From NCBI GenBank assembly GCA_963693365.1, contig CAVNZM010000015.1, positions 5,774,624 to 5,838,623 on the forward strand: DNA of 64,000 nucleotides, given 5' to 3'. The position numbers were made by a program, and so were the translations under genes. The notes under the pieces are model-generated. The model saw nothing but the letters and a program-made list of their open reading frames with translations, did not search any database and was not told the DNA's origin. Positions 22,197 through 64,000 of this stretch are shown here, one piece after another (within the stretch, counting starts at the first letter, position 1; each line of letters starts with the position of its first letter). This DNA is from Amoebidium appalachense (lineage: Eukaryota; Protista; Ichthyosporea).

Positions 22197-24248
22197 TCTA
22201 TGAAAACTACTCCGGGACGTGTGTTGCCTCTAGGGGGACATCCCCTTGGACGAAAGTGAACCTGCAATGGTTGTAAACCACGGCAAGCCCCCAGTCATCA
22301 ATTTATTGATCCGTGAGGTCCTTGTGCCCAAAAAACGGGGGAAGTCTTCGCCCCGTGAAAAAACAGCACGTATGTGGGGATCAATGGGGGTTGAGTGTAG
22401 GGTGTAGATGGGTGGGTGAAAAAGAAAATATAGCTGTAAAGCTGTAGGTGCTAAACACAGAGGATGTGTTGTTGCTTGCTGATCTGCTAAAAACTGTCGT
22501 GCTTATATACCTAAGGCTGCCGAACTGAGCCAATCAAAACCGATCTAGTGTTATGTGAAATCTTATCCTGAGCCAATCAAACTCGGTCTAGTGATCTGTG
22601 GAATCTGATGCTTTGATCGGCTAATAGGTGCCCGTATGCGGGCAGCCGAACGCGAACTGCTAAAACATGAAACGAAGCCTGTTGATATCGGACACCCATC
22701 CTACGTGTTTACCCAGAAAAATATTTATGTCAATAATTTCCAAAAATAAAACCTCTATGAAAACTACTCCGGGACGTGTGTTGCCTCTAGGGGGACATCC
22801 CCTTGGACGAAAGTGAACCTGCAATGGTTGTAAACCACGGCACGAGAGCAGTATGCTTGCTCCAAAGGTTTCACTTAAGAATAGAGGCGAATACACGTGT
22901 GGTAGTGGCAGCAATGGAGGCCGGACGAAGTCGGGTATAGATCAGGAAACAGTCGGAGGACCACCTGCCGAGTTGTTTGATCCGGGAGTCGTCGACCCCG
23001 GCCTCAGCCAGTGCTGTGGGCCCCCCGATGCGGAGGCTGTGTCCGGCAAACCGGGAGGGTGAGAGGCCTGCCCGGGAGAGGAGGGCACGGAAGTCGGCAG
23101 AGAAAGCACTCTTGGTGTAGGGGATGCCACCGAGACTGAAGAGGGGGTCGTTGGGTTGACCGGACGTTGTATCCAGGAACTGCCGGAGGAGATGGGCTGG
23201 GGAGAAGTGGGTGAGGGGCAGGGCAGCTAGAGTGACGTTGACACCTCGGGCCTGTACATCCGTCTTAGAGGTTGGCAGGTGGAGGGTGGCATGGGACAAA
23301 GTACCGGTGGGGGTGTAGGTGAAGGTCACGTCTTTCCGTTTAACGTGACGGGACGGGTCAAAGGAAGTCAGGGTTTTGGAGGTAAATTCCCCCGAACGGA
23401 GGAGACCACAGAAACCGACGATGAGGGCCGTCCATAGCCGTAGATTAGTCGAGGAGGCCTTGGTGGGGCACTGGCCATGGAGTAGGCTAAGGTGGGAGGG
23501 CAGGAGGGGCTCCCTGGTGGATGATCGGGGTCGGATGTTGTGAGAAAGCTGCCATCTGCCCACCCCTCGGAAGAACCAGGCCAGAGACTTGTCGTGGGGG
23601 TAGGGAGCAGGGAGGCCCATGTCGAGGTGGAGTCTGGTGATAGCCGAATTGTAGCCGGCCAAGGAAGAGGCCTGTACCCCTCGTTGGGCACACCAGGCGA
23701 GAAAAAGCTGCACGGTGTGGGGGGAGGCCGGGAGGGAGGACCCGGCGGAGGATTGCAGCCGAGATGCCACACAAAAATCGATGAACACTTTTTTTTTTGT
23801 ACCCTGGAGTAAAAGGCCCGAGAGTTGAGGTTGAGACTCAGGGCCTGGCATTCCTGCAGGGTAGTGGTGGCACGAAGCAGCTCGGCCGGAGCAAAGTGGG
23901 GGGCCAATCGGCCAGCGTTGCTCCGGGGGGGGGGGGGGGGGAAGGGGAGATAGGTGGGGGGGGGGGGGGGGGGGGGGGGTGAGCCCAGGGGAAGGGATAG
24001 GAACTTGTGGACCCAGAAGGGGGAGGGGCAGGGCTCCGGTTGCAGGTAAGGTCGGAGTCGTCGGGTCCGGGGAAGTTGGTTACGGAGGAGCTGCGCGGCG
24101 AATGATTGGGCTGGGTAGGGGGGCCAGCAGCTCCCAGAGGCGGGAGGTGTCAACGTGGTGCTGGGGCAGCGGGCGGGCCACCGGGGCTGAGCCTCGGGGG
24201 AAGGGGGTGGTTAGCAAGGGTGGGGCACCCTCGGGGAGATCCCGGCAT

Positions 24249-24293
<45 letters not shown>

Positions 24294-25603
24294 CAGGGCC
24301 CCGGGGGGTTAGAGTAGGGCAGCTGGGCCCGAGGGAGGGTTTGCAGGGAGGGCAGCGGGGCCCTGTGCAGGGGATGCCCGAGCACGCGCGGGTGTGGGCG
24401 TACACAGAGTTAGAAGAAGGGAGGGAGCGCTAGGTGAGTGTAAGGGGGGGAGGCTCGTGGGATGGGGGGGGAGTAAATTTATGTGCAGTGGCCAGAATAA
24501 CGTCTTTGTGTAGGGACATTTATTCTTGGCGCGCGCGGGCGCCGTAGTTGGCCTGCGAAAAATGTTACTCAGCCCTAGTGCCCCGTTTTTCCCGAGCTCC
24601 GTGTCCTTGGACCCGTGTAACCTAGCTCCTAGCCCCTATGTTCTATCTGTGGGTGTGGGTGTGCGCGTAGACTAGGCATTGTGCTTGCAGTCTTTGCGGG
24701 GGTGTGTGCCAGAGCAGAGCGGGCACACGTGGGAGAAGGGGCAGGGCTGCTTAGCGCAGGACCGACCGTTGTGGAAATTCCTGCAGTGTGTTGCGGGTAG
24801 ATCCACGGGTCGGGCCGGTGGTGCCGGGCCGGGTTGCGGGCCGGGTCGGTTGGGGGTTTGTCCCCCGCCGGGCTTGTGGGGGGGCTCGAAACCATCAAGA
24901 CCACAGCCGGGCTTGGGGTACATGGGGCAGGCCGCGCTGGGGTGGTCGGGGAAGCCGCAACGCTGACATGCGTCCGGGATGAGCAGAGTGGGTGGCAGGA
25001 GGAGATCCTGGTGGAGTTGGGCGAGCAGGTTGGGACACTCGATCGGACCCCGACCCTGTTGGTGGGCAACGGTTCGGGCGTATACGTCATAGTTGTGGAT
25101 CTGGGTCCACGGGTATCGGGTGCTGAGGCGAGTGATGCGTTGGTCAGCCTGTGGCGGAGGTCGCTGCGGGTTAGGCGCTTAGGTGCCGCGGTAGGGGCGG
25201 CGGCTGAGGCCTGGCGCTTTTTTCGGCGGCATGCTGACCGGCGTAGGGAAAGATAGGGAGAAGAAAAGAAAAAGAAAATATAGCTGTAAAGCTGTAGGTG
25301 CTAAACACAGAGGATGTGTTGTTGCTTGCTGATCTGCTAAAAACTGTCGTGCTTATATACCTAAGGCTGCCGAACTGAGCCAATCAAAACCGATCTAGTG
25401 TTATGTGAAATCTTATCCTGAGCCAATCAAACTCGGTCTAGTGATCTGTGGAATCTGATGCTTTGATCGGCTAATAGGTGCCCGTATGCGGGCAGCCGAA
25501 CGCGAACTGCTAAAACATGAAACGAAGCCTGTTGATATCGGACACCCATCCTACGTGTTTACCCAGAAAAATATTTATGTCAATAATTTCCACAAATAAA
25601 ACC
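22197..25603 (-). mobile_element. Ngaro-type YR retrotransposon copy A, non-autonomous (gag partly deleted, RT/RH deleted, YR retained)
   Basis: Both termini are present (GGTTTTATTTG... and ...TTTTCATAGA), with the A1, B1, A2, spacer, B2 layout. Confidence 0.92.
22871..23851 (-). CDS. Tyrosine recombinase of Ngaro copy A (N-terminus frameshifted in an A-run)
   Basis: LLRSGEF, TSKTD, GHSLRIG, GRWSS, LIYTR; near-identical to 62454-63485. Confidence 0.85.
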   Translation of the reverse strand: MPGPESQPQLSGLLLQGTKKKVFIDFCVASRLQSSAGSSLPASPHTVQLFLAWCAQRGVQASSLAGYNSAITRLHLDMGLPAPYPHDKSLAWFFRGVGRWQLSHNIRPRSSTREPLLPSHLSLLHGQCPTKASSTNLRLWTALIVGFCGLLRSGEFTSKTLTSFDPSRHVKRKDVTFTYTPTGTLSHATLHLPTSKTDVQARGVNVTLAALPLTHFSPAHLLRQFLDTTSGQPNDPLFSLGGIPYTKSAFSADFRALLSRAGLSPSRFAGHSLRIGGPTALAEAGVDDSRIKQLGRWSSDCFLIYTRLRPASIAATTTRVFASILK

Positions 25604-31600: not shown

Positions 31601-33477
31601 ATGGAGGTATATACTCGCAGGCAGGACGTTTTGAGGTCTACACCGACCACAAGCCCTGCCTAGCCATGGCCGGCACCACTCGTCTGGTGAACGAGAGGAT
31701 GCAGAAGTGGGCCGCGGCTCTCGGTGAGTTCTCCTATAAATTGTTTTATGCCAAGGGTGAAACAATGGTTGACTGTGATGCTCTCTCTCGTGCTGCTTAT
31801 ATTTTGTTTGAAGAAGAGAAGGAGGGGGAGGGGGGGGCTAGTGAGACTCTGAGACGGGGGGGGAGGGGGGAAGGGGGGGGAGAGTGAGCAGAAAGGAATA
31901 GATGCTGTGTCTGTTGATGTGTCTTCTTGGGCTCCAGGGTTGCTTGCTTATAAGTGTAGGGGAGGGGGGGGGAGGTATTTGTCAGTGTCTGAGGTCGGGA
32001 CCGAGTCTCATGGTTCGGCCCCTGCCTTAGCACCTACGGCTTTGATCTTAGCTCAGGAGGAAGATGTGTTGATTGGTCTGGTTAAGAATTATTTAAAGGG
32101 GCCGGTTGATTCGATTAAATTTAAAAATAAAAGGCAGATGATTAAGGTAGCTAAGTTAGCAAAAATGTGTCAGGTAGAGCAGGATTTAGTTTATCATTGT
32201 TCTGGGCCAGACGGACACCGAGTTTGGGTCCCGACGGCACTTGTGCCTGAGGTTTTGCATATGGTGCATGAGCATCCCATGGCTGGTCATTTAGGTGTAA
32301 ATAGGACGTTGCTTCGTGTTAATCGTTCGTATTTTTGGCCGGGTATGAGTAGGGAGGTGAGGGATTATGTGTTGTCATGCATGCATTGTCAGGAAAGGAA
32401 TGAGAGTCCCCACTCTCGTTCCCGCCCGTCGTTTATTAGGGATTTTAATGTTCGTATGTTTGAAAGGGTAGCAGTGGATGTGGTCGGTCCTAAAAATTTT
32501 AATTCTACGGTTGAGGGTAACACTGTTCTTGTTACCGTCACCGATGTGGCCACTCGTTGGGTTGAAGTTTTTCCTCTCCCCACTGCTAATGCCGTTTTGT
32601 TTGCTCGTATTTTTGTGGATGAAATTTGTCTTAGGTTTGGTTGTCCTCGTGTTTTGTTAACGGATAGGAGTTGTGTGTTTTTAAATCAGTTGGTGTCGGA
32701 GGTGTGTAAAATTTTAAGGGTAGCTCACTAATCACTACGTCTGCATATCACCCTCAAGCAAATGCCATCTCTGAACGTGTGCATGCAGTGTTTCAGAAGT
32801 CCTTGGGCAAAATGGTGGATGTGGAGGCTAATGATTGGGATCATATGTCTAGGTTTATTGCTCATTCATATAATTCTACCCCTCATGCTGTGACTGGTTT
32901 TTCTCCGTTTTATTTGGTCTATGGGCAGGAGGCTATTAGTTTGTTAGATACGGCACTTTTGCCGATGGGGGGGCTGTTCGACTAACTTATCCCCACTGGA
33001 CTGAGTTCCGGGAACAGCTACTAACCCGGGCCCGGGCTGCACGTGATGCAGCTCTGGCCCGTACACAGCAGGCACAGACACGGGCAGACGTGTCCACACG
33101 TCCGTTACGTGAATTTGCCGAGGGTACTTTAGTTTTAATTAGGGATCATACTAGGAAAAAGAGATATAAGCAGGAGCAGGAAGGTAAGGGTGAAGGTGAA
33201 GGTCTTCGTAGGTATGGTAAGAAATGGTTGCCTCTTTTCATTGGCCCGTATAAAATAGTGGCTAGGTTAGGTCCGACGGAATATAAGGTGCAGAGGTTAG
33301 ATAATGAGAGTGATGTTAGATTTTATAATGTAGATGATATAAAGGAATATTATGATAGGGCCCTTAGGGTTAAAAGGCCGGAGGGCCGTGGAGTGTTAGA
33401 TGCATTCACCCCCGACTATGACGGGTCGGTGGATGTATCGGAGGCTGCAGTAGATAAAATTAGCACCGATGCAGAGC
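28664..33477 (+). pseudogene. pol: Gypsy pol (protease, RT, RNase H, integrase with GPY/F), frameshifted
   Basis: ALLDGGAQVN; SPWRSPVLLVKKPDGSWRLVNDYRALN, YLDD; CDAS, ERESHAI, TDHKP; HEHPMAGH..CMHC, AVDVVGP, LTDRS, GPYKI. Several frameshifts and a stop. Confidence 0.92.
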
Positions 33478-33886
33478 GGTTTTATTTGTGGAAATTATTG
33501 ACATAAATATTTTTCTGGGTAAACACGTAGGATGGGTGTCCGATATCAACATAACCATGTAGGCTTCGTTTCATGTTTTAGCAGTTCGCGTTCGGCTGCC
33601 CGCATACGGGCACCTATTAGCCGATCAAAACATCAGATTCCACAGATCACTAGACCGAGTTTGATTGGCTCAGGATAAGATTTCACATAACACTAGATCG
33701 GTTTTGATTGGCTCAGTTCGGTAGCCTTAGGTATATAAGCACGACAGTTTTTAGCAGATCAGCAAGCAACAAACACATCTTCTGTGTTTAGCACCTACAG
33801 CTTTACAGCTATATTTTCTTTAATTTCTTTTTGTTTCAGCTATATTTTCTTTTTCACTCTCCCTATCTTTCCGTACGCCGGTCAGC

Positions 33887-35058
33887 ATGCCGCCGAAAAA
33901 GCGCCAGGCCTCAGCCACCGCCCCTGCCGCGGCACCCAAGCGCCTGACCCGCAGCGACCTCCGCCACAGGCTGACCAACGCTCCCGCGGACACTGACGCG
34001 CCTCCAGCGGCCCATACCACCACGGACCCGGACCCGCCGGCTACTCTCCCCTCCCCTCCTGAAGTCCCCCCTCAGGCCCCGCCGTCCCCGCAGATGACTT
34101 CTCAAGACGCCGTCCTTGCCGCCCTCACCGCCATCAGCACCCAGATGGCTGGCGTCCTGGCTGCTCTCACCAACCGCGACCCTCCCGCGCCCCCCGCCGC
34201 GCCCTCCGCACCCGGGGAGGTTTCCCCGGGGCTGCATCTCGGCCCTGACCTAGACCTACCTGCCCTGCCCGCGCCCCCCATCACAGGTGAGAACACTGGC
34301 GACATTCAGCCGGGCACACTCCCGCTTCCCCCCCGCGGATGTGCTGGCAGATTTGCGCGCCAATCGTTTCGTCGACCTGTATAAGTTCACCCCCGCCGCC
34401 CTCCTGGCCCCATCCAAGAAAGGTCAGCATCTGCGCATGGCCGACGACGGCAGCATCGAGACTTTTCGCCAAGACAAACCCGTTCCCCTGCGTTCACTCG
34501 TCATTTGGATCCAAGCTTGGACCCATTACATGGCCGCCAAGCACCACCTCGGCCTCCCCACGGACAAAGACGTACTTTGGACTCAGCACATCACTCGCCT
34601 CAGCACCCGATACCCGTGGGCCCAGATCCACAACTATGACGTATACGCCCGAACCGTTGCCCACCAGCAGGGTCGGGCTCCGATCGAGTGTCCCAACCTG
34701 CTCGCCCAACTCCACCAGGATCTCCTCCTGCCACCCACTCTGCTCATCCCGGACGCATGTCAGCGCTGCTGGCTTCCCCGACCACCCCAGCGCGGCCTGC
34801 CCCATGTACCCCAAGCCCGGCTGTGGTCTTGACGGCTTTAAGCCGCCCCACAAGCCCGGCGGGGGTCAAACCCCTAACCGCCCTGGCCCGCAACCCGGCC
34901 CGGCAAAACCGGCCCGACCCGTGGATCTACCCGCGACGCACTGCAGGAATTTCCACATTAACGGTCGGTCCTGCGCTAAGCAGCCCTGCCCCTTCTCCCA
35001 CGTGTGCCCGCTCTGCTCTGGCACACACCCCCGCAAAGACTGCAAGCACAATGCCTAG
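33887..35058 (+). pseudogene. gag: Ngaro B gag (two small frameshifts)
   Basis: Near-identical to the intact gag at 59095-60264. Confidence 0.85.
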
Positions 35059-35337
35059 TCTACGCGCACACCCACACACACAGCTAGAACATAGGGGTTA
35101 GGAGCTAGGACACACGAGTACAGGGAAACGGAGCTCGGGAGAACGGGCCAATAGGGCTGAGTACAAAATTTCGCAGGCCAACTACGGCGCCCGCGCGCGT
35201 CAAGAATAAATGTCCCTACACAAAGACGTTTATTCTGGCCACTGCACATAATTTTACTCCCCCCCCCCCATCCCACGAGCCTCCCCCCCCCCCTTACACT
35301 CACCTAGCACTCCCTCCCCCCCCCTTCTTCTACCTCT

Positions 35338-35453
35338 GTGTCCGCCCACACCCCCGCGTGCTCGGGCACATTCCCCTGCACAGGGCCCCGCTGCCCTCCC
35401 TGCCAACCCTCACTCGGGCCCAGCTGCCCTACTCTAACCCCCCCGGGGCCCTG

Positions 35454-35496
<43 letters not shown>

Positions 35497-37179
35497 CTGC
35501 CGGGATCTCCCCGAGGGTGCCCCACCCTTGCTAACCACCCCTTCCCCCGAGGCTCAGACCCGGAGGCCCGCCCGCTGCCCCAGCACCACATTGACACCTC
35601 CCGCCTCCGGGAACTGCTGGCCTCCTACCCAGACCAATCATTCGCCGCACAACTCCTCCACGATGTCGAATTCGGTGTCGACATCGGCTATCCATCGCGG
35701 CCCCTCCACCTCTCGGGTGGGCCCCAACCTACCCACCACCCCGGAGGCAGCTTCCGCTATCACGGCGGATATTGCCAAAGAAGTCGCCCCGCCTCGGCCA
35801 CCTGCGCGGCCCCCTCTCCCCGGCCCAATTCTTTGACGAATTTCCGGTCCACCGTTCCTCCCCCATCGGCGCCGTTACCAAGAAAGGGAACCCCCCCAAG
35901 TACCGTCGAATCCACCACCTCTCCTGGCCCCGGGGTAGCAGTGTCAATGACAGCATCACCTACCCCGACGAACTTCAGTACATTCGCGCCCGGGACGTCA
36001 CCCAGCTCATTCTCGACGCAGGCCCCGGCTGCTACATGGCCGTGGCAGATGTGCAGGCTGCCTTCCGGCACATGCCCATCCGACCAGAAGACCATCACTT
36101 AATGGCATTCAAATGGCTGGGGCATTTTTACGTTGAAACCAGACTGCCCTTCGGCCTGAAATCTAGCCCAGCCATCTGGGAACGGATCGCGGCCACCCTA
36201 CAGTGGCTGGCACACCAGCACGGTATTACCCTCATCCGCCACTACGTAGACGACTGGATTATAGTCGCCCCCACACAAGAGCAGTGCCAACGTCACCTAT
36301 CCACCTTCCTGCAACTCTGCCGAGAGCTGCACATTGCCAATTTCCGAAGACAAGATGCAGGGCCCGGCTACCCGTGTCGTCTTCATCGGTATCGAATTCG
36401 ACTCCATCGCCATGGAGGCACGAATCCCGGCTTCCAAGCTCTCGGACCTACTCGACCTCACTTCCCACCCAAAGCCCACCATCACCATTCGGGACCTCCA
36501 GTCCCTCCTCGGCAAACTCACCTGGTGTGCCCAGCTGGTTCCCCCCGGGAGGGCCTTCTCCCAGCGCCTATGGGCCCTTCTCCGGACCCACCCACACCTT
36601 GCCGGCCACCACCACATACGACTGACTGCTGCCGCCCGGGCCGACATAGCCGAATGGCACCAGTTCCTCACATCATGGAATGGGGTGCACCTCATCACAC
36701 CCCCCACATACACCACCCTGGCCACCGATGCTGCCGGATCGGTGGGTCTAGGAGGCCACTGGCTCGACCAATGGTTCTTCATGCCCTGGTCCCCCTCCAC
36801 CCAAGCCCTCTATGCTCATGAGGGTAAACTCGGTTCTTCCGTCATCGAACTCCTGGCCATCGCAGCCGCCGTGGCCCTCTGGGCCCCCTCCTGGTCCACC
36901 CACCATGTCCGTATTTTATGCGACAACACGGGTGCTGTGTCTGACCTGCACTCCCGGTCTTCCCCCCACCCCGTGATGGCCAAACTTATTCGGTTCATCA
37001 CCCGCATGGAAATGCAATACCAATTTACGTTACAGGCATCCTACCTACCAGGACCCCTCAACCATCTGGCCGATGCCATTTCTCGTAACCAACTTCCCCG
37101 GGCCCGACGACTCCGACCTTCCCTGCAACCGGAGCCCTGCCCCTTCCCCTCCTGGGTCCACGAGTTCCTATCCCTTTAA
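35338..37179 (+). pseudogene. Ngaro B RT/RNase H (small frameshifts)
   Basis: YRRIHHLS, ADVQAAFR, LPFGLKSSP, YVDD, TDAAG, CDN, ADAISR. Confidence 0.88.
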
Positions 37180-37968
37180 ACCCCTCCCCTTGGGCTAACC
37201 CCCCCCCCCCCCCCCCCCCCAGATCTCCCGTTCCGGAGCAACGCTGGCAGATTGGCCCCCCACTTTGCTCCGGCCGAGCTGCTTCGAGCCACCACTACCC
37301 TGCAGGAATGCCAGGCCCTGAGTCTCAACCTCGACTCTCGGGCCTTTTACTCCCCGGGTGCAAAAAGTGTTCATCGATTTCTGTGTGGCATCTCGGCTGC
37401 AATCCCCCTCCGGGTCCTCCTTCCCGGCCTCCCCACACACCGTGCAACTTTTTCTCGCCTGGTGTGCCCAACGAGGGGTACAGGCCTCTTCCTTAACCGG
37501 CTACAATTCGGCCATCACCAGGCTCCACCTCGACATGGGCCTCCCTGCTCCCTACCCCCACGACAAGTCTCTGGCCTGGTTCCTACGGGGGGTGGGCAGA
37601 TGGCAGCTTTCTCACAACATCCGACCCCGCTCATCCACCAGGGAACCCCTCCTGCCCTCCCACCTCAGCCTACTCCATGGCCAGTGCCCCACCAAGGCCT
37701 CCTCGGCCAATCTCCGGCTATGGACGGCCCTCATCGTCGGTTTCTGTGGTCTCCTCCGTTCAGGGGAATTTACCTCCAAGACCCTGACTTCTTTCGACCC
37801 GTCCCGTCACGTTAAACGGAAGGACGTGACCTTCACCTACACCCCCACCGGTACTTTGTCCCATGCCACCCTCCTGTTGTAATACGTAGTATTTACATAT
37901 GGTAAGATCTTCTCAGTTTGTGTTATGTTTCAGTTCATATGCTTAGTGTAAAAGCACACTCCTATTAC

Positions 37969-40900
37969 GGTTTTATTTGTGGAATGACAAAATATCTGTA
38001 AACACGTAGGATGGGTGTTCGTTTACTCCATGTAGGCTTCGTTCGTGTTTTAGCAGTTCGCGATTGGCCGCTCGCACACGGGCACCTATTAGCTAATCAA
38101 AACATCAGATTCCACATATCGCTAGACCGATTTTGATTGGTTCGATTCAGATTCACATATCACTGGATCGATTTTCAATTGGCTCAGGTCGGTAGGCTTA
38201 GGTATATAAGCAAGACAGTTTTCAGCAGATCAGCAAGCTACAAACACATCTTCTGTGTTGAGCACCTACAGCCCTTACGGCTATACATTTTCTTTTCACA
38301 CTCCGTGACAACTCTTGACACGAGCTTCTGTCACACCTTGACAATCGTGCCATCCTTGCAAGTTCAGCTTGCCCTCGTGTCCTCCTCGCAAGTTAGGCTT
38401 GCACTCCTGCCAGTTCCGTCCCGGTTAGGGCTAGTCGCCCTACAAGTTCCTCGACACTTCAAGAAGATTTCCTGACATGGTCCCTCACGCGCCGCGCCGC
38501 TGTGATCTAAGTCCCTACCACTCGTCTAATTTCAAACCCCGTTTTCAATCCCGATGGCCTAGAATTTCACACCCCGCCTCGATCCGCATTGACTATCCTC
38601 GCTCATAGTCCTTGCCCGATTGCCCTTCTGAGTATTCAAATACGGTACTCCAATCGCGTCGCTTATGTTAAACCCAGTCAAAGCACCTTGTGCTTTCCTA
38701 CTGTTCAGGAGTCCTGACCCCAAGTCCCTGCCAGAACAGCTTACCATGTTCAACCCGCCTCCTTCCCTGTTTTCCCACCCTGTTTCCCGCCATGTCTCCC
38801 CCCACCATGACTTCACTGTCGATGGATACCTCACATTCCATTGGTCTGCCCCGCATTCCAGCAGCATTTTTTTCCTCAGATCACAAGGCCAGCCTCGTCG
38901 AGATCTCAGCTACCCCAAACCCTGCACGGCCCCAGTTCCCCTGCAGCTGTTCCCCCCCTGTTGCCACCCGACCCCGGCCAGCTACACATGCTGCCAGGTC
39001 CGGTCGTTCCCATCCACGTTTCTGCCCAGCCAGCCTACCGTGCTGCCTGCCCATCCACGTTTCTGCCCAGCCAGCCTACCGTGCTGCCCGCCCCCGTTTC
39101 CAAAGCCCCTGGCCCGACCCAGTTAACCTTCTCCGTCCGGACTTACCTGCCTTTGACCCTGCCTCCGTCGTGCCTGATCCCAAAACCAATCCCGTCAAAG
39201 CCCCTCCTCCCCCTCCCTGTTCCGGCTTTCCCAGTAACCCCCCGAGCAGCAAGAACCCTCAGGCTCGACGCCCCTCCAAACGAATTTCAAATTACGCGAC
39301 CTCCGCAACCAGCTGCCCAACGCTCCCGCGGGCACTGACGCGCCTCCGGCGGCCCCCACCACCACGGACCCTCCAAGCCACTCTCCCCTCTACCCCTGAA
39401 GCCCCCCCTCAGGCCTGTCCCATGTAGTACCCCAAGCCCGGCTGTGGTCTAAGACTTGATGGCTTCACACCGCCCCACAAGCCCGGCGGGGGACAAACCC
39501 CCAACCGCCCTGACCCGCACCCCGGCCTGGCAACACCGGCCCGATCGGTGGAGCTACCCGCCACGCACTACATGAATTTCCACATTTAAGGTCGGTCCTG
39601 CGCTAAGCAGCCCTGCCCCCCTCTCCCACGTGTGCCCGCTCTGCTCTGGCACACACCCCCGCAAAGACTGCAAGCCTAATGCCTAGTCTACGCGCACACC
39701 CACACACACAGATAGAACATAGGGGCTAGGAGCTAGGATACACGGGTACAGGGACACGGAGCTCGGGAGCTCGGGTCACTAGGGCTAAGTACAAATTTTC
39801 GCAAGCCACCTACGGCGCCCGCGCGCGCCACAGAATACATGTCCCTACACAAAGACGTTATTCTGGCCACTGCACATAATTTTACTCCCCACCCATCCCA
39901 CGACCCCCCCCCCCTTACACTCACCTAGCCCCCCCCCCCCCCCCCCCCCCCCCCCTTCTAACTCTGTGTCCACCCGCATCCCCGCGTGCTCGGGCATCCC
40001 CTGCACATGGCCCCGCTGTTCTGCCTGCAACCTCCCTCGGGCCCAGCTGCCCGCACACACAGATAGAACATAGGGGCTAGGTGCTAGGATACACGGGTAC
40101 AGGGACACGGAGCTCGGGAGCACGGGCCACTAGGGCTGAGTACAAATTTTTGCAGGCCACCTACGGCGCCCGCGCGCGCCACAGAATACATGTCCTTACA
40201 CAAAAGACGTTATTCTGGCCACTGCACATAATTTTACTCCCCACCCATCCCACGAGCCTCCCCCCCCCCCTTACACTCACCTAGCACTCCCCTCCCCCCC
40301 CCCCCCCCCCCTTCTAACTCTGTGTCCGCCCGCATCCCCGCGTGCTCGGGCATCCCCTGCACATGGCCCCGCTGTTCTGCCTGCAACCTCCCTCGGGCCC
40401 AGCTGCCCGCACACACAAGATAGAACATAGGGGCTAGGAGCTAGGATACACGGGTACAGGGACACGGAGCTCGGGAGCACGGGCCACTAGGGCTGAGTAC
40501 AAATTTTTTTGCAGGCCACCTACGGCGCCCGCGCGCGCCACAGAATACATGTCCTTACACAAAAGACGTTATTCTGGCCACTGCACATAATTTTACTCCC
40601 CACCCATCCCACGAGCCTCCCCCCCCCCCCCCCTTACACTCACCTAGCACTCCCTCCCCCCCCCCTTCTAACTCTGTGTCCGCCCGCATCCCTGCGTGCT
40701 CGGGCATCCCCTGCACATGGCCCCGCTGCCCTGCCTGCAACCTCTCTCGGGCCCAGCTGCCCTACTCTAAACCCCCCGGGGCCCTGCTGCCCCCCCCCCC
40801 CCCCCCCCCCCCCGGCTGCCGGGGTCTCCCCGAGGGTGCCCCACCCTTGCTAACCACACCTTCCCCCGAGGCTCAGACCCGGAGGCCCAGCCCCCCCTCG

Positions 40901-42877
40901 GCCACCAGCGCGGTCACCCTCTTCCCGGACCAATTCCTTGCTGAGTTTCCGGTCCTCCGTTCCTCCCCCATCGGCGCCGTTACTACAAAAAACAAGCCCG
41001 GGACCCCAGCTCATTCTCGACGCAGGCCCCGGCTGCTACATGGCAGTGGCAGACGTGCAGGCTGCCTTCCGGCACATGCCCTCTCCCTTCCCCTGGGCGC
41101 AACCCCCCCCTCCCCCTCCCCCCCCCCCCCCGATCTTCCCTTCCGGAGCAACGCTGGCAGATTGGCCCCCCACTTTGCTCCGGCCGTGCTGCTTCGAGCC
41201 ACCACTACCCTGCAGGAGTGCCAGGCCCTGAGTCTCAACCTCGACTCTTGGGCCTTCTACTCCCGGGTGCAGAAAGTGTTCATCGATTTTTGTGGCATCT
41301 CGGCTGCCATCCTCCTCCGGGTCCTACCTCCCGGCCTCCCCACACACCGTGCAGCTCTTTCTTGCCTGGTGTGCCCAACAAGGGGTACAGGCCTCTTCCT
41401 TGGCCGGCTACAATTCGGCTATCACCAGACTTCACCTCGACATGGGACTTCCGGCTCCCTACCCCCACGACAAGTCTCTCGCCTGGTTCCTACAAGGGGT
41501 GGGCAGATGGCAGCTTTTCTCACAACATCCGACCCCGATCATCTCCCAGAGAACCCCTCCTGCCCTCCCACCTCGGCCTACTCCATGGCCAGTGCCCCAC
41601 CCAGGCCTCCTCAGCCAATCGCCGGCTTTGGACGGCCCTCATCGTCGGTTTTTGTGGTCTCCTCCGTTCGTGGGAATTTACCTCCAACGCCCTGACTTCA
41701 TTCGACCCGTCCCGTCACGTGAAATGGAAGGACGTGACCTTCAGCTACACCCCCACCAGTACTTTGTCCCATACCACCCTCCACCGTCCTGCCAACCTCC
41801 AAGATGGATGTACAGCCCTACGTGTCAACGTCACTCTAGCTGCCCTGCCTCTCACCCACTTCTCCCCAGCCCATCTCCTCCGGCAGTTCCTGGATACGAC
41901 ATCCGGTCAACCTGACGACCCCCTGTTCAGTCTCGGTGGCATTCCCTACACCAAGGGTGTTTTCTCTGACGACTTCCGTGCCCTCCTCTCCCGGGCGGGC
42001 CTCTCACCCTCCCGGTTTGCCGGCCACAGCCTCCGAATTGGGGGGGCCACAGCCCTGGCCGAGGCCGGGGTCGACGACTCCAGGATCCAACAACTTGGCA
42101 GATGATCTTCCGACTGTTCCCTGATCTATACTCGACTTCGCCGGCCCCCATGGCTGCCACTAACAAACGTGTATTTGCCTCTATCCTTAAGTGAAACCTT
42201 TGGAGCAAGCATACTGCTCTCGTGCCGTGGTTTACAACCATTGCAGGTTCACTTTCGTCCAAGGGGATGTCCCCCTAGAGGCAACACACGTCCCGGAGTA
42301 GTTTTCATAGAGGTTTTATTTGTGGAATTTATTGACATAAATATTTTTCTGGGTAAACACGTAGGATGGGTGTTCGATATTGACATAACAATGTAGGCTT
42401 CGTTCGTGTTTTAGCAGTTCGCGATTGGCCGCTCGCACACGGGCACCTATTAGCTAATCAAAACATCAGATTCCACATATCGCTAGACCGATTTTGATTG
42501 GTTCGATTCAGATTCACATATCACTGGATCGATTTTCAATTGGCTCAGGTCGGTAGGCTTAGGTATATAAGCAAGACAGTTTTCAGCAGATCAGCAAGCT
42601 ACAAACACATCTTCTGTGTTGAGCACCTACAGCCCTTACGGCTATACATTTTCTTTTCACCCACCCACCTACACCCACACTCACCCCCATTGATCCACAC
42701 ATGCGTGCTGTTTTTTCACGGGGCGAAGGCTTCCCCCGTTTTTTGGGCACAAGGACCTCACGGATCAATAAATTGATGACTGGGGGCTTGCCGTGGTTTA
42801 CAACCATTGCAGGTTCACTTTCGTCCAAGGGGATGTCCCCCTAGAGGCAACACACGTCCCGGAGTAGTTGTCATAGA
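37969..42877 (+). mobile_element. Ngaro copy C, non-autonomous and divergent, inserted in the Copia 5' LTR
   Basis: Termini GGTTTT../..CATAGA with A1, B1, A2, B2. Only fragments of gag and RT remain, and the YR is frameshifted with a stop. Removing it restores the LTR junction (CTATTAC|GTAAAG). Confidence 0.92.
39703..40760 (+). repeat. Triplicated ~355-bp gag-RT linker inside Ngaro C
   Basis: GATAGAACATAGGGGCTAGG.. recurs at about 39711, 40062 and 40419. Confidence 0.9.
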
Positions 42878-43707
42878 GTAAAGTGTAGCATCGATCTCCG
42901 ATATGCTTGTATACTTGTAATCGTCTTGTATCGGCTTTAATCGTGTGTTGTAATATCGATTAGAATATTTATATGTGTGTACACGGATCCACCCACTCAG
43001 GGAGAGACGTGTACATGTTCGTGTGTACATAAATATCTCTGGTTATAGTTATGCTATTGCTATCTTGTTTGTTGATCTGTGCTCTCTTTTCCTTCCTCTT
43101 TCTCCTTCCTTATTTTCTTTTCTTTCTCTCTTTGTCTTCATGTGTATAATCGTATTTCTTTTCTACTAATATATGTTAGGTAGATTTGTGTTACTTAATA
43201 CGTGTTCATTGGACGGTAACACACTTAGGCTACACTTAGAATAGCATGTGTGTTTAGACTTCATTAATTTACTTTAGTTTTCATGTGTTGCCGGGCTTTA
43301 ACCAATCATCAAGGTTAAGTGTGATATGTCTGAGTCTTTGCAGTATGTCATAGGTTAGAACTTCCTTGATGATGACACAAGTTGACCTTAACTAGTGTCT
43401 GTGTCCTATCGTGTGCGTCTCCGCGTACCGGATCTCTCTGAAAGCAATTGGTTCTTAGTGATTGGTTTCTATTAGAGATAGATCTGATTTCCGACTGGTC
43501 GGAAATCATGTATGGATTGGACTTAGAGGAATTTCAGGTATTTATTCGAAGATCAGAATAAATTCAGTTCAGTCGTGTCTAAACATTGATGTCTGTTGTG
43601 TACACTGCTCCGATCGTTCCGTGTTTTGTTGTTGTGTGTGTCTGTGGTGTTTTCACACTGCACCACTGTGTCTCTGCTTACATCCCAAATACTTATACAA
43701 TTTAACA

Positions 43708-54540: not shown

Positions 54541-56898
54541 TCTATGAAAACTACTTCGGGACGTGTGTTGCCTCTAGGGGGACATCCCCTTGGACGAAAG
54601 TGAACCTGCAATGGTTGTAAACCACGGCAAGCCCCCAGTCATCAATTTATTGATCCGTGAGGTCCTTGTGCCCAAAAAACGGGGGAAGTCTTCGCCCCGT
54701 GAAAAAACAGCACGTATGTGGGGATCAATGGGGGTTGAGTGTAGGGTGTAGGTGGGTGGGTGAAAAAGAAAATATAGCTGTAAAGCTGTAGGTGCTAAAC
54801 ACAGAAGATGTGTTTGTTGCTTGCTGATCTGCTAAAAACTGTCGTGCTTATATACCTAAGGCTACCGAACTGAGCCAATCAAAATCGATCTAGTGTTATG
54901 TGAAATCTGATCCTGAGCCAATCAAACTCGGTCTAGTGATCTGTGGAATCTGATGTTTTGATCGGCTAATAGGTGCCCGTATGCGGGCAGCCAAACGCGA
55001 ACTGCTAAAACATGAAACGAAGCCTGTTGATATCGGACACCCATCCTACGTGTTTACCCAGAAAAATATTTATGTCAATATTTCCACAAATAAAACCTCT
55101 ATGAAAACTACTCCGGGACGTGTGTTGCCTCTAGGGGGACATCCCCTTGGACGAAAGTGAACCTGCAATGGTTGTAAACCACGGCACGAGAGCAGTATGC
55201 TTGCTCCAAAGGTTTCACTTAAGAATAGAGGCGAATACACGTGTGGTAGTGGCAGCAATGGAGGCCGGACGAAGTCGGGTATAAATCAGGAAACAGTCGG
55301 AGGACCACCTGCCGAGTTGTTTGATCCGGGAGTCATCGACCCCGGCCTCAGCCAGTGCTGTGGCCCCCCCTATGCGGAGGCTGTGGCCGGCAAACCGGGA
55401 GGGTGAGAGGCCTGCCCGGGAGAGGAGGGCACGGAAGTCGGCAGAGAAAGCACACTTGGTGTAGGGAATGCCACCGAGACTGAACAGGGGGTCGTCGGGG
55501 TGACCGGACGTTGTATCCAGGAACTGCCGGAGGAGATGGGCTGGGGAGAAGTGGGTGAGGGGCAGGGCAGCTAAAGTGACGTTGACACCTCGGGCCTGTA
55601 CATCCGTCTTGGAGGTTGGCAGGTGGAGGGTGGCATGGGACAAAGTACCGGTGGGGGTGTAGCTGAAGGTCACATCATTCCGTTTAACGTGACGGGACGG
55701 GTCAAAGGAAGTCAGGGTTTTGGAGGTAAATTCCCCCGAACGGAGGAGACCACAGAAACCGACGATGAGGGCCGTCCATAGCCGTAGATTGGCCGAGGAG
55801 GCCTTGGTGGGGCACTGGCCATGGAGTAGGCTGAGGTGGGAGGGCAGGAGGGGCTCCCTGGTGGATGATCGGGGTCGGATGTTGTGAGAAAGCTGCCATC
55901 TGCCCACCCCTCGGCGGAACCAGGCCAGAGACTTGTCGTGGGGGTAGGGAGCAGGGAGGCCCATGTCGAGGTGGAGTCTGGTGATGGCCGAATTGTAGCC
56001 GGCCAAGGAAGAGGCCTGTACCCCTCGTTGGGCACACCAGGCGAGAAAAAAGCTGCACGGTGTGGGGGGAGGCCGGGAGGGAGGACCCGGCGGAGGATTG
56101 CAGACGAGATGCCACACAAAAATCGATGAACACTTTTTGCACCCGGGAGTAAAAGGCCCGAGAGTCGAGGTTGAGACTCAGGGCCTGGCATTCCTGCAGG
56201 GTAGTGGTGGCACGAAGCAGCTCGGCCGGAGCAAAGTGGGGGGCCAATCGGCCAGCGTTGCTCCGGAAGAGGAGATCTGGGGGGGGGGGGGGGGGGGTGA
56301 GCCCAGGGGAAGGGATAGGAACTTGTGGACCCAGAAGGGGAAGGGGCAGGGCTCCGGTTGCAGGTAAGGTCGGAGGCGTCGGGTCCGGGGAAGTTGGTTA
56401 CGGAGGAGCTGCGCGGCGATTGATTGGGCTGGGTAGGGGGGCCAGCAGCTCCCGGAGGCGGGAGGTGTCAACGTGGTGCTGGGGCAGCGGGCGGGCCTCC
56501 GGGGCTGAGCCTCGGGGGAAGGGGTGGTTAGCAAGGGTGGGGCACCCTCGGGGAGATCCCGGCATCGGGGGGGGGGGGGGGGGGGGGGGGGGGCAGCAGG
56601 GCCCCGGGGGGTTGGAGTAGGGCAGCTGGGCCCGAGGGAGGGTTTGCAGGGAGGGCAGCGGGGCCCTGTGCAGGGGATGCCCGAGCACGCGCGGGTGTGG
56701 GCGTACACAGAGTTAGAAGAAGGGGGGGGGGAGGGAGTGCTAGGTGAGTGTAAGGGGGGGGAGGCTCGTGGGATGGGGGGGGGAGTAAAATTATGTGCAG
56801 TGGCCAGAATAACGTCTTTGTGTAGGGACATTTATTCGTGGTGCGCGCGGGCGCCGTAGTTGGCCTGCGAAAATTTTTTACTCAGCCCTAGTGCCCCG
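54541..56898 (-). mobile_element. Ngaro copy D, 5'-truncated, RT/RH deleted, YR retained
   Basis: B2, spacer, A2, B1 and YR are present; same RT/RH deletion junction as copy A. Confidence 0.9.
55215..56277 (-). CDS. Tyrosine recombinase of Ngaro D (one frameshift in a T-run)
   Basis: R-K-HxxR-W-Y motifs are intact. Confidence 0.82.
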
Positions 56899-58566: not shown

Positions 58567-58879
58567 GGTGGGTGGGTGGGTGGGTTGGACTAGGGAGGTA
58601 TGGGCCAAGTAACAGGGCTACAGCAAAGATACCGAAAAAAACCCCCTACGTTTACACCCGCAAAAGTTCTTTTTTCCTACATGTGCAACATCAACTACTC
58701 AGGGCGGTTTTATTTGTGGAAATTATTGACATAAATATTTTTCTGGGTAAACACGTAGGATGGGTGTTCGATACCAACATAACCATGTAGGCTTCATTTC
58801 GTGTTTTAGCAGTTAGCGGTTGGCTGCCCGCACACGGGCACCTATTAGCCAGTCAAAACATCAGATACCACAGATCACT

Positions 58880-58970
58880 AGACCGAGTTATGATTGGCTC
58901 GGATCAGATTTCACATATCACTAGATCGATTTTTGATTGGTTCAGATCGGTAGGCTTAGGTATATAAGCA
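58880..58970 (+). promoter_or_regulatory. Pol II-like promoter in repeat A
   Basis: Two reverse CCAAT boxes (GATTGG) followed by TATATAA at 58961-58967; conserved in the A repeats of all copies. Confidence 0.65.
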
Positions 58971-59094
58971 CGACAGTTTTTAGCAGATCAGCAAGCTACA
59001 AACACATCTTCTGTGTTTAGCATCCACAGCCTTACAGCTATATATTCCTTTTCACTCCTTTTCATTCTCCCTATCTTTCCCTACGCCGGTCAGC

Positions 59095-60264
59095 ATGCCG
59101 CCGAAAAAGCGCCAGGCCTCAGCCGCCGCCCCTGCCGCGGCACCTAAGCGCCTGACCCGCAGCGACCTCCGCCACAGGCTGACCAACGCTCCCGCGGACA
59201 CTGACGCGCCTCCAGCGGCCCATACCACCACGGACCCGGACCCGCCGGCTACTCTCCCCTCCACCCCTGAAGTCCCCCCTCAGGCCCCGCCGTCCCCGCA
59301 GATGACTTCTCAAGACGCCGTCCTGGCCGCCCTCACCGCCATCAGCACCCAGATGGCTGGCGTCCTGGCTGCTCTCACCAACCGCGACCCTCCCGCGCCC
59401 CCCGCCGCGCCCTCCACACCCGGGGAGGTTTCCCCGGGGCTGCATCTCGGCCCTGACCTTGACCTGCCTGCCCTGCCCGCGCCCCCCATCACAGGTGAGA
59501 ACACTGGCGACATTCAGCCGGGCACACTCCCGCTTCCCCCCGCGGATGTGCTGGCAGATTTGCGCGCCAATCGTTTCGTCGACCTGTATAAGTTCACCCC
59601 CGCCGCCCTCCTGGCCCCATCCAAGAAAGGTCAGCATCTGCGCATGGCCGACGACGGCAGCATCGAGACTTTTCGCCAAGACAAACCCGTTCCCCTGCGT
59701 TCACTCGTCATTTGGATCCAAGCTTGGACCCATTACATGGCCGCCAAGCACCACCTCGGCCTTCCCACGGACAAAGACGTACTTTGGACTCAGCACATCA
59801 CTCGCCTCAGCACCCGATACCCGTGGGCCCAGATCCACAACTATGACGTATACGCCCGCACCGTGGCCCACCAGCAATGTCGGGCTCCGATCGAGTGCCC
59901 CAACCTGCTCGCCCAACTCCACCAGGATCTCCTCCTGCCACCCACCCTGCTCATCCAGGACGCATGTCAGCGCTGTGGCTTCCCCGACCACCCCAGCGCG
60001 GCCTGCCCCATGTACCCCAAGCCCGGCTGTGGTCTTGACGGCTTTAAGCCGCCCCACAAGCCCGGCGGGGGTCACACCCCTAACCGCCCTGGCCCGCAAC
60101 CCGGCCCGGCCAAACCGGCCCGACCCGTGGATCTACCCGCGACGCACTGCAGGAATTTCCACATTAACGGTCGGTCCTGCGCTAAGCAGCCCTGCCCCTT
60201 CTCCCACGTGTGCCCGCTCTGCTCTGGCACACACCCCCGCAAAGACTGCAAGCACAATGCCTAG
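59095..60264 (+). CDS. gag: Ngaro gag-like ORF1
   Basis: 389 aa; NLS-like MPPKKR; CQRCGFPDHPSAAC and C-terminal CRNFH..C..CPFSHVCPLCSGTHPRKDC zinc fingers typical of Ngaro/DIRS ORF1. Confidence 0.9.
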   Translation: MPPKKRQASAAAPAAAPKRLTRSDLRHRLTNAPADTDAPPAAHTTTDPDPPATLPSTPEVPPQAPPSPQMTSQDAVLAALTAISTQMAGVLAALTNRDPPAPPAAPSTPGEVSPGLHLGPDLDLPALPAPPITGENTGDIQPGTLPLPPADVLADLRANRFVDLYKFTPAALLAPSKKGQHLRMADDGSIETFRQDKPVPLRSLVIWIQAWTHYMAAKHHLGLPTDKDVLWTQHITRLSTRYPWAQIHNYDVYARTVAHQQCRAPIECPNLLAQLHQDLLLPPTLLIQDACQRCGFPDHPSAACPMYPKPGCGLDGFKPPHKPGGGHTPNRPGPQPGPAKPARPVDLPATHCRNFHINGRSCAKQPCPFSHVCPLCSGTHPRKDCKHNA

Positions 60265-60512
60265 TCTACGCGCACACCCACACACACAGCTAGAACATAG
60301 GGGTTCGGAGCTAGGACACACGAGTACAGGGAAACGGAGCTCGGGAGAACGGGCCAATAGGGCTGAGTACAAAATTTCGCAGGCCAACTACGGCGCCCGC
60401 GCGCGTCAAGAATAAATGTCCCTATACAAAGACGTTTATTCTGGCCACTGCACATAATTTTACTCCCCCCCCCCCCCATCCCACGAGCCTCCCCCCCCTT
60501 ACACTCACCTAG

Positions 60513-60656
60513 CACTCCCTCCCCCCCCTTCTTCTACCGCTGTGTCCGCCCACACCCCCGCGTGCTCGGGCACATTCCCCTGCACAGGGCCCCGCTGCCC
60601 TCCCTGCCAACCCTCACTTGGGCCAAGCTGCCCTACTCTAACCCCCCGGGGCCCTG

Positions 60657-60721
<65 letters not shown>

Positions 60722-62405
60722 CTGCCGGGATCTCCCCAAGGGTACACCACCCTTGCTAACCACCCCCTTCCCCCGAGGCTCAGACCCGGAGGCCCGCCCG
60801 CTGCCCCAGCACCACATTGACACCTCCCGCCTCCGGGAACTGCTGGCCTCCTACCCGGACCAACCATTCGCCGCACAACTCCTCCACGATGTCGAATTCG
60901 GCGTCGACATCGGCTATCGCGGCCCCTCCACCTCTCGGGTGGGCCCCAACCTACCCACCACCCCGGAGGCAGCTGCCGCTATCACGGTGGATATTGCCAA
61001 AGAAGTCGCCCTCGGCCACCTGCGCGGCCCCCTCTCCCCGGCCCAATTCTTTGACGAATTTCCCGTCCACCGTTCCTCCCCCATCGGCGCCGTTACCAAG
61101 AAAGGGAACCCCCCCAAGTACCGTCGAATCCACCACCTCTCCTGGCCCCGGGGTAGCAGTGTCAATGACAGCATCACCTACCCCGACGAACTTCAGTACA
61201 TTCGCGCCCGGGATGTCACCCAACTCATTCTCGACGCAGGCCCCGGCTGCTACATGGCCGTGGCAGATGTGCAGGCTGCCTTCCGGCACATGCCCATCCG
61301 ACCGGAAGACCACCACTTAATGGCATTCAAATGGCAAGGGCATTTTTACGTTGAAACCAGACTGCCCTTCGGCCTGAAATCTAGCCCAGCCATCTGGGAA
61401 CGGATCGCGGCCACCCTACAGTGGCTGGCACACCAGCACGGTATTACCCTCATCCGCCACTACGTAGACGACTGGATTATAGTCGCCCCCACACAACAGC
61501 AGTGCCAACGTCACCTATCCACCTTTCTGCAACTCTGCCGAGAGCTGCACATTGCCATCTCCGAAGACAAGATGCAGGGCCCGGCTACCCGTGTCGTCTT
61601 CATCGGTATCGAATTCGACTCCATCGCCATGGAGGCACGAATCCCGGCTTCCAAGCTCTCGGACCTACTCGACCTCACTTCCCACCCAAAGCCCACCATC
61701 ACCATTCGGGACCTCCAGTCCCTCCTCGGCAAACTCACCTGGTTTGCCCAGCTGGTTCCCCCCGGGAGGGCCTTCTCCCAGCGCCTATGGGCCCTTCTCC
61801 GGACCCACCCACACCTTGCCGGCCACCACCACATACGACTGACTGCTGCCGCCCGGGCCGACATAGCCGAATGGCACCAGTTCCTCACATCATGGAATGG
61901 GGTGCACCTCATCACACCCCCCACATACACCACCCTGGCCACTGATGCTGCCGGATCGGTGGGTCTAGGTGGCCACTGGCTCGACCAATGGTTCTTCATG
62001 CCCTGGTCCCCCTCCACCCAAGCCCTCTATGCTCATGAGGGTAAACTCGGTTCTTCCGTCATCGAACTCATGGCCATCGCAGCCGCCGTGGCCCTCTGGG
62101 CCCCCTCCTGGTCCACCCACCATGTCTGTATTTTATGCGACAACACGGGTGCTGTGTCTGACCTGCACTCCCGGTCTTCCCCCCACCCCGTGATGGCCAA
62201 ACTTATTCGGTTCATCACCCGCATGGAAATGCAATACCAATTTACGTTACAGGCATCCTACCTACCAGGACCCCTCAACCATCTGGCCGATGCCATTTCT
62301 CGTAACCAACTTCCCCGGGCCCGACGACTCCGACCTTCCCTGCAACCGGAGCCCTGCCCCTTCCCCTCCTGGGTCCACGAGTTCCTATCCCTTCCCTTGG
62401 GCTAA
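60513..62405 (+). CDS. Ngaro reverse transcriptase / RNase H
   Basis: 550-aa open frame from 60753 with DIRS-type RT (YRRIHHLS, LPFGLKSSP, YVDD) and RH (TDAAG, IELMA, CDN, ADAISR). The upstream extension is in frame in copy B; no ATG at the ORF start. Confidence 0.92.
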
Positions 62406-62430
62406 CCCCCCCCCCCCCCCCCCCCCCCAG

Positions 62431-63485
62431 ATCTCCCGTTCCGGAGCAACAGATTGGCCCCCCACTTTGCTCCGGCCGAGCTGCTTCGAGCCACCACTAC
62501 CCTGCAGGAATGCCAGGCCCTGAGTCTCAACCTCGACTCTCGGGCCTTTTACTCCCGGGTGCAAAAAGTGTTCATCGATTTCTGTGTGGCATCTCGGCTG
62601 CAATCCTCCTCCGGGTCCTCCCTCCCGGCCTCCCCACACACCGTGCAACTTTTTCTCGCCTGGTGTGCCCAACGAGGGGTACAGGCCTCTTCCTTAACCG
62701 GCTACAATTCGGCCATCACCAGGCTCCACCTCGACATGGGCCTCCCTGCTCCCTACCCCCACGACAAGTCTCTGGCCTGGTTCCTACGGGGGGTAGGCCG
62801 ATGGCAGCTTTCTCACAACATCCGACCCCGCTCATCCACCAGGGAACCCCTCCTCCCCTCCCACCTCCACCTACTCCACGGCCAGTGCCCCACCAAAGCC
62901 TCCTCGGCCAATCTCCGGCTATGGACGGCCCTCATCGTCGGTTTCTGTGGTCTCCTCCGTTCAGGGGAATTTACCTCCAAGACCCTGACTTCTTTCGACC
63001 CGTCCCGTCACGTTAAACGGAAGGACGTGACCTTCAGCTACACCCCCACCGGTACTTTGTCCCATGCCACCCTCCACCTGCCAACCTCTAAGACGGATGT
63101 ACAGGCCCGAGGTGTCAACGTCACCCTAGCTGCCCTGCCCCTCACCCACTTCTCCCCAGCCCATCTCCTCCGGCAGTTCCTGGATACAACGTCCGGTCAA
63201 CCCGACGACCCCCTCTTCAGTCTCGGTGGCATCCCCTACACCAAGAGTGCTTTCTCTGCCGATTTCCGTGCCCTCCTCTCCCGGGCAGGCCTCTCACCCT
63301 CCCGGTTTGCCGGACACAGCCTCCGCATCGGGGGGGCCACAGCACTGGCTGAGGCCGGGGTCGACGACTCCCGGATCAAACAACTCGGCCGGTGGTCCTC
63401 CGACTGCTTCCTGATCTATACCCGACTTCGTCCGGCCTCCATTGCTGCCACCACCACACGTGTATTCGCCTCTATTCTTAAGTGA
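62431..63485 (+). CDS. Ngaro tyrosine recombinase
   Basis: Open frame with catalytic R (LLRSGEF), K (TSKTD), HSLR, W (GRWSS) and Y (LIYTR); no ATG at the N-terminus. Confidence 0.93.
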
Positions 63486-64000
63486 AACCTTTGGAGCAAG
63501 CATACTGCTCTCGTGCCGTGGTTTACAACCATTGCAGGTTCACTGTCGTCCAAGGGGATGTCCCCCTAGAGGCAACACACGTCCCGGAGTAGTTTTTCAT
63601 AGAGGTTTTATTTGTGGAAATTATTGACATAAATATTTTTCTGGGTAAACACGTAGGATGGGTGTTCGATACCAACATAACCATGTAGGCTTCATTTCGT
63701 GTTTTAGCAGTTAGCGGTTGGCTGCCCGCACACGGGCACCTATTAGCCAGTCAAAACATCAGATACCACAGATCACTAGACCGAGTTATGATTGGCTCGG
63801 ATCAGATTTCACATATCACTAGATCGATTTTTGATTGGTTCAGATCGGTAGGCTTAGGTATATAAGCACGACAGTTTTTAGCAGATCAGCAAGCTACAAA
63901 CACATCTTCTGTGTTTAGCATCCACAGCCTTACAGCTATATATTCCTTTTCACCCACCCACCTACACCCACACACAACCCCCATTGATCCACACATACGT

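Follow-up and report, generated by a model that had tools for sequence, protein, structure and literature searches.

Copy E, a Ngaro-type retrotransposon with open frames for gag, pol and a tyrosine recombinase (YR), occupies positions 58706-63953 of a 64,000-nucleotide (nt) window of the Amoebidium appalachense genome (contig CAVNZM010000015.1, positions 5,774,624 to 5,838,623, forward strand). The sequence suggests that both of its enzymes, a pol-encoded reverse transcriptase (RT)/RNase H and the YR, are expressed by splicing from a single donor within gag to an acceptor in front of each enzyme gene (probability about 0.75); splicing to YR taken by itself is rated as more probable still. Because one donor is combined with matching in-frame acceptors before both enzyme genes, alternative splicing and not frameshifting is the likely mode of expression. 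The sites, their phases, the open frames and the lack of usable ATGs can be read directly in copy E, and the arrangement is conserved in relatives.

Splice sites of copy E

The first-pass annotation of this DNA had proposed that YR is made as a fusion to the N-terminus of Gag, by splicing from a donor in gag to an acceptor with a branch point and a poly-C tract. Both sites have the sequence and the phase claimed for them. The donor (CAG/GTGAGA, phase 1) follows the first 400 nt of gag, the last of which is 59494, and is the best among all GT sites in the gene (p=0.037 against synonymous redraws). The acceptor consists of GCTAAC, a run of 23 C and AG, and opens an exon at 62431 in phase 1 of the YR frame. 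The 59494-62431 join gives a protein of 484 amino acids (aa) with no internal stop and with the junction peptide as predicted. The statement that YR has no initiator ATG is true in substance, the first in-frame ATG of YR being found only at 62736. The annotation did not record that the pol stop codon (TAA, 62403-62405) sits within the YR branch point and, in copy E, in the YR frame.

The lack of a usable ATG in pol, where the first in-frame ATG (61254) lies inside RT, was also absent from the annotation. Upstream of RT there is an acceptor with two AGs, retained in 5/5 copies covering the site. The two exon starts, 60778 and 60784, are both in phase 1 and give open fusions of 675 or 673 aa from the donor at 59494. 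The predicted introns have the features of U2 introns (GT donor, branch point, pyrimidine tract and AG, as in the introns of the intron-rich host), and all three joins are open. A spliced mRNA as the source of the recombinase is the best explanation and has strong comparative support, but this description is incomplete, since the same donor probably also feeds pol.

Other arguments of the annotation fared less well. The likeness to the poly-C acceptors of a host SLC4 gene holds in part: with the exons read by eye, 4/10 SLC4 acceptors are C-rich and 1/10 has a T/C tract; in 5/10 the pyrimidine tract is short, mixed or missing. A 6-nt indel between copies B and E just after the YR acceptor had been taken as preserving the frame. 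The 6 nt are present in copies A, B, C and D, so the deletion is specific to copy E. Copy B is a dead copy, with a +1 frameshift 120 nt beyond the indel and another five across gag and pol, so that no selection can be read from the indel. Copies B and E do retain both the donor (at 34287 in copy B) and the YR acceptor. The joint loss of donor and AG in copies A and C is not significant (p=0.4 for five copies, 0.33 for four); copy D keeps the AG with no gag in the window.

YR acceptors in related elements

Relatives were obtained by scanning metagenome contigs with a YR alignment; 364 stretches matched, 327 were confirmed and the best 80 were kept. A scan of viral contigs found no relative. Copy E and 32 loci hand-picked from these best 80, one or two from each family and with a long frame upstream, form a set of 33 rows, in which an approximate generic matrix was used to score acceptors, at a cut-off of 2 bits. 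In the opening 150 nt of the YR frame a site above the cut-off was found in 17/33 rows, and the phase was 1 in 17/17. The control was 206 later windows of the same YR frames, where 21/55 strong sites (0.38) were in phase 1. The probability of the phase-1 excess is 8e-8 when the 17 rows are counted and 5e-4 when only 8 lineages are counted. One of the 17 sites, that of L064, is located late, inside the YR coding sequence, and is probably due to chance.

A fixed rule, with the site at +15 to +60 nt from the RNase H end motif, was applied to 22 families. The cut-off was reached in 14, of which 13 were in phase 1, compared with 57/460 of other pol windows, 10/57 of these being in that phase. Synonymous redraws for 16 families gave a combined p=2.5e-7, the families being related to each other and chosen after the first 33-row result. 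The families that carry an acceptor have a median YR identity of 31% and represent at least seven deep branches in an unrooted tree with long branches. Phase 1 is also kept in AT-rich relatives without poly-C. The clade of L048, L051, L057 and L064 constitutes an internal control: YR has an ATG of its own there, and the fixed-rule site holds no acceptor.

Among the families with Gln at the fixed +24 position, its codon is CAG in 5/5 (about 0.016 by their own codon use). A product of CAG versus CAA over 16 families was set aside as circular. The Gln after the RNase H end motif is encoded by CAA in copy E, and the acceptor is found 145 nt downstream, past the pol stop. What stays fixed is the YR phase. 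The annotation had named conservation of donor, acceptor and phase in other Ngaro families as a check; phase-1 YR acceptors do recur, but donor phase is weak evidence.

Leader exons, donors and pol acceptors in relatives

The clearest leader exons belong to L001, L006 and L016, a related group from one assembly, in which the first ATG after the A1 repeat opens a frame of 87-102 codons followed by a stop. These short frames have a phase-1 donor at aa 94 (L001), 67 (L006) and 91 (L016), 4-20 codons before the stop, and 0.8-1.0 kb with stops in all frames separates the leader from gag. From that ATG, Gag of the three elements could be made only with splicing. Their gag, pol and YR each open with a phase-1 acceptor, 9/9 joins are open and the pol fusions are 666-671 aa long. 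Phase-1 pol acceptors are found in L001, L005, L016 and L021, 140-149 nt upstream of the same RT anchor. The best gag donor of the single-exon families is in phase 1 in 7/7.

The predicted first exon of copy E includes one heptad helix (aa 76-96) and ends 26 codons upstream of a conserved Gag core motif. Heptad stretches upstream of the proposed donors are clear in L006, L025, L042 and L078, weak in L001 and L008 and lacking in L016 and L038. Prediction of the leader helix as a trimer gave a score of 0.20. In L008 (4750-4757) and L014 (121-128), but not in L001, L005, L016 and L038, the codons for the conserved Gag motif G-E-F/Y read GGT GAG T and so make up a perfect donor. In P0143, a 446-aa protein on a 2004-nt contig, an 85-aa N-terminus with a heptad helix replaces the acceptor-derived residues of the relatives of this Ngaro YR. 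It may be a spliced Gag-N/YR product, and is given as a lead only; it does not significantly resemble the leader of copy E (E=2.6, shuffle p=0.36), and a search for a matching Gag found none.

Deletions and contig evidence

Among the deletions listed for public DNA contigs of this Ngaro family, 18 are distinct (15/19 and a further 4, with one in common). Two of the 18 are GT..AG deletions, where 0.045 are expected with matched microhomology (probability of two or more 0.0009). One of these, 59495-59925 in DNA run X3, starts exactly at the predicted donor, which is 1 of 155 GT sites, and ends at a cryptic acceptor. The other is the precise deletion of a 108-nt segment of YR in a contig of DNA run X1, and it ends at a branch-tract-AG site that had been found independently. 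Both are best read as reverse-transcribed mis-spliced RNAs, with microhomology repair as the alternative, and the first of them gives the donor indirect support in vivo.

Neither a 59494-62431 nor a 59494-60778/60784 joint occurs in the contigs of X20, X23 and X24, guessed to be RNA runs, and of five other runs; cover of the acceptors is missing or repeat-masked there (62394-62438, 60650-60730) and contigs can only show that a joint is present, so the result is neutral. One contig of a guessed-RNA run crosses the donor unspliced (59371-60038), and could stem from gag mRNA, from genomic RNA or from DNA. The gag contigs of X20 (one study only) end at 60418, beside an AATAAA after the gag stop that is a possible early poly(A) signal for gag mRNA.

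Proposed expression and alternative explanations

Alternative splicing of a single transcript starting in the A1 repeat would yield the three proteins. If not spliced at 59494, the RNA would encode full Gag and also serve as full-length genomic RNA, a splice to 60778 or 60784 would give Gag-N/RT-RNase H and a splice to 62431 would give Gag-N/YR, these joins presumably being made by the spliceosome. The shared leader of 133 aa, with its basic motif and heptad helix, may supply the start codon and act in nuclear import and in assembly together with Gag. The leader fusion would then have the role that frameshifting has for Gag-Pol.

Splicing to YR only, with pol expressed by reinitiation, from a non-AUG start or from an internal promoter, is unlikely. 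It would suit the difference between the YR acceptor, which is strong and widely conserved, and the pol acceptor, which is weak in copy E and absent in several relatives, but not the GCTAAC-pyrimidine-AG with two phase-1 AGs before pol in 5/5 copies covering the site or the phase-1 pol acceptors of L001, L005, L016 and L021. Distinctly unlikely is the explanation that the signals are by-products of common poly-C, YR being made from an internal promoter, a non-AUG codon or a downstream ATG. C-runs are indeed abundant throughout the window; the run before YR is however bordered by a branch point and an in-phase AG, phase 1 persists in the AT-rich relatives that lack poly-C, and a downstream ATG would cost some 100 aa, conserved blocks of the YR N-terminus among them. 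A Pol-YR fusion through readthrough of the pol stop is very unlikely. The YR of copy E does resume in the pol frame right after this single stop, but in copies A, B and D the length of the C-run shifts YR away from the pol frame (1/4 copies in frame, although homopolymer lengths may be assembly errors), YR is in frame 0 in 0/22 relatives, no stable structure follows the stop (z=-1.3) and a start for pol is still needed.

Programmed -1 ribosomal frameshifting within a pol/YR overlap is the published proposal (Poulter and Butler 2015, as quoted in a passage of PMC13003380) and can hardly be expected here. The YR of 21/22 relatives overlaps pol in the -1 frame, but such an overlap also results when the CAG of an acceptor doubles as a Gln codon of pol, and frameshifting leaves unexplained the pyrimidine tract and CAG where the YR frame opens. 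A strict slippery heptamer was found in 0/16 overlaps scanned. Because pol and YR do not overlap in copy E, the model cannot apply to this element unless the assembly is wrong at the C-run.

Several observations weigh against expression of both enzymes by splicing, which is itself deduced from DNA. The pol acceptor of copy E is weaker than its YR acceptor: it scores -1.5 and -2.7 bits on the approximate generic matrix, its first AG reads GAG/, and further upstream, at 60739-60740, there is an AG out of phase. No clear phase-1 pol acceptor was found in L008, L014, L025, L042 and L078, and for this reason pol expression probably varies across Ngaro. Pol is in frame after the gag stop in L025 (1541-1550) and L042 (1542-1551) with the readthrough-like context TGA CAA TTC, which suggests that pol of these two is expressed by readthrough of the gag stop; pol of L057 is likewise in frame after the gag stop and begins with Gln. 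Under the fixed rule the site of L040 is in phase 0 and L047 has no site, and the coding of the conserved ADALSRxQ protein motif already biases the sequence towards pyrimidines and CAG. A canonical slippery heptamer is present in L034, and 9/16 acceptor families show a relaxed slippery pattern. The top donor is in phase 1 in 36-92% of redrawn gag genes of the seven single-exon families, among which only copy E reaches p<0.05 for its donor; as redrawn genes, too, mostly have their top donor in phase 1, little weight can be put on donor phase. Each GT..AG deletion is represented by one contig with a guessed run type, the one at the donor is out of frame and shows microhomology of 4 nt, and the count covers 15 of the 19 joints in the first deletion set.

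Element structure and neighbouring features

Copy E is assigned to Ngaro by layout and motifs, the tree of relatives containing no named Ngaro reference. It has split direct repeats of the type A1...B1A2B2, B2 being taken from other copies, and the gene order gag, RT/RNase H, YR. No methyltransferase domain follows RNase H: pol ends 39 aa past the start of the ADAISR motif, and Pfam gives RT domains only. The repeats are direct only, and the inverted terminal repeats with ICR or methyltransferase that mark DIRS1-like and PAT-like elements are lacking. A typical but not defining Ngaro trait, YR overlapping pol in the -1 frame, is not found, pol and YR being in the same frame without overlap. 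The catalytic motifs of tyrosine recombinases (R, K, HxxR, W, Y) are present in YR. A Pfam search with gag gave no match. The ends of the element, CATAGA on the 3' side and GGTTTT on the 5' side, match the B1/A2 junction (63597-63610), as expected for a circular intermediate. Coordinates are given in Table 1.

Table 1. Features of copy E and of other Ngaro copies in the window
Feature	Position	Strand	Remarks
A1 split direct repeat	58706..59055	+	100% identity to A2 (63604-63953) over 350 nt
TATA-like TATATAA	58961-58967	+	inside A1; putative promoter
gag ORF	59095..60264	+	389 aa; ATG at 59095; C-terminal Cys/His fingers; related loci also match gag
Predicted shared coding exon 1	59095..59494	+	133 aa; basic PPKKR start, Pro/Ala-rich
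Donor	59492..59500	+	CAG/GTGAGA, phase 1
Cryptic acceptor	59905..59925	+	ends X3 deletion; exon start 59926, out of frame for gag
AATAAA after gag stop	60411..60416	+	sole AATAAA of copy E within the window
pol acceptor	60755..60783	+	branch point GCTAAC, pyrimidine tract of 15 nt, first AG 60776-60777, second AG 60782-60783
pol exon (RT + RNase H)	60778..62405	+	RVT_1 E=2.4e-18; stop-to-stop frame 60642-62405
YR acceptor	62401..62430	+	GCTAAC, 23-C run, AG
YR exon, predicted	62431..63485	+	frame 62406-63485; Phage_integrase E=4.4e-08
Cryptic GT..AG segment in YR	63052..63159	+	108 nt; deleted in a contig of X1
B1 repeat	63514..63603	+	B2 of copy E outside window; B2 visible in copies A, C, D, F
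A2 repeat	63604..63953	+	identical to A1
Copy A	22197..25603	-	internal deletions take out donor and most of pol; YR AG lost
Copy B	33472..37874	+	96% identical; donor and both acceptors kept; gag, pol, YR frameshifted; 3' truncated
Copy C	39296..42878	+	rearranged, without donor; YR AG lost
Copy D	54541..56898	-	sister of A; no gag in window; YR AG kept

Five further copies or pieces, A, B, C, D and F, are found in the window beside copy E. Copies A and D have a 1416-nt pol deletion in common. A segment of about 350 nt from the gag-pol spacer forms three tandem units in copy C (39412-40893). The 607-nt gag deletion of copy A (59189-59795 in copy E coordinates) is seen again, with high contig depth, in DNA runs X1 and X5, which suggests an amplified non-autonomous subfamily.

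The host SLC4 gene (Band_3_cyto and HCO3_cotransp, 428-9612, minus strand) has at least 11 exons. Its donors are varied (GTACAC, GTGTGT, GTTTGT), and several acceptors without a pyrimidine tract have a CTAAC or CTGAC branch point. The introns carry G-runs near donors and C-runs near acceptors, and one contains a 35-nt tandem array at about 2970-4150. A chromodomain-type Gypsy-like element (27167-33506, plus strand), with protease, RT, RNase H, integrase and SH3, is located immediately upstream of copy B. Two Copia-like elements (43590-47865, plus strand, and about 14900-16300, minus strand) are about 76% alike over one stretch. Pieces of a Plavaka transposase (57173-58612, plus strand) lie between copies D and E, interrupted by C-rich sequence that contains CTAAC-tract-AG (exon start 58168) and is probably an intron.

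Discussion

Foamy viruses make Pol from its own spliced mRNA without frameshifting; that Pol starts at an ATG of its own and lacks a Gag portion, whereas the two enzymes of copy E, with their two acceptors, would share the N-terminus of Gag. In Ty1/Copia elements with a spliced subgenomic gag mRNA the spliced RNA gives Gag and the unspliced RNA the polyprotein. The prediction for copy E is reversed, with Gag from unspliced and the enzymes from spliced RNA, and the likeness is that splicing sets the ratio of Gag to enzyme. Such an mRNA of Ty1/Copia elements is described in PMC5580714. For the LAP2alpha and ZNF451 exons derived from DIRS1 gag, the authors infer that the segment brought a splice acceptor and a poly(A) signal (PMC4495291); this is host co-option and is silent on how the element expresses RT or YR.

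Passages of PMC9210276, PMC8547959 and PMC3783388 describe Ngaro, in the order DIRS, as A1-[gag, RT/RH, YR]-B1A2B2 without methyltransferase, a layout shared by copy E. According to the passage of PMC13003380 cited above, Ngaro YR is probably translated by -1 frameshift, from which copy E differs in having no pol/YR overlap and phase-1 acceptors on both enzyme genes. A search of full-text literature gave no paper describing spliced expression of Ngaro or DIRS elements, the founding Ngaro literature, Repbase and supplements being outside its scope, so that an earlier mention is possible. The string 'splic' did not occur in a passage search of PMC3783388, PMC9210276 and PMC8547959, and the passages retrieved from PMC6681497, PMC4157794, PMC7192593, PMC9341512 and PMC12477816 hold nothing on spliced expression. 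Copy E is a known kind of element whose proposed expression strategy, conserved in relatives, has probably not been described before.

A Ngaro-wide extension is slightly more likely than not: joining a single Gag leader exon to phase-1 acceptors through alternative splicing would be ancestral and widespread. The YR acceptor would lie within codons of the ADALSRxQ end motif of RNase H, RT and YR would share an oligomerising leader, real introns would survive reverse transcription and the -1 overlap, so far taken for a frameshift site, would be a footprint of the acceptor.

The RT and YR frames of elements of the order DIRS lack an ATG, and the sole published proposal found for their expression in Ngaro is the putative frameshift. 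If splicing is confirmed, a conserved plan of one donor and several acceptors would replace that proposal. The true N-termini of the enzymes would be known, for use in biochemistry or in a tagged active element, and Ngaro elements would be under the control of host splicing.

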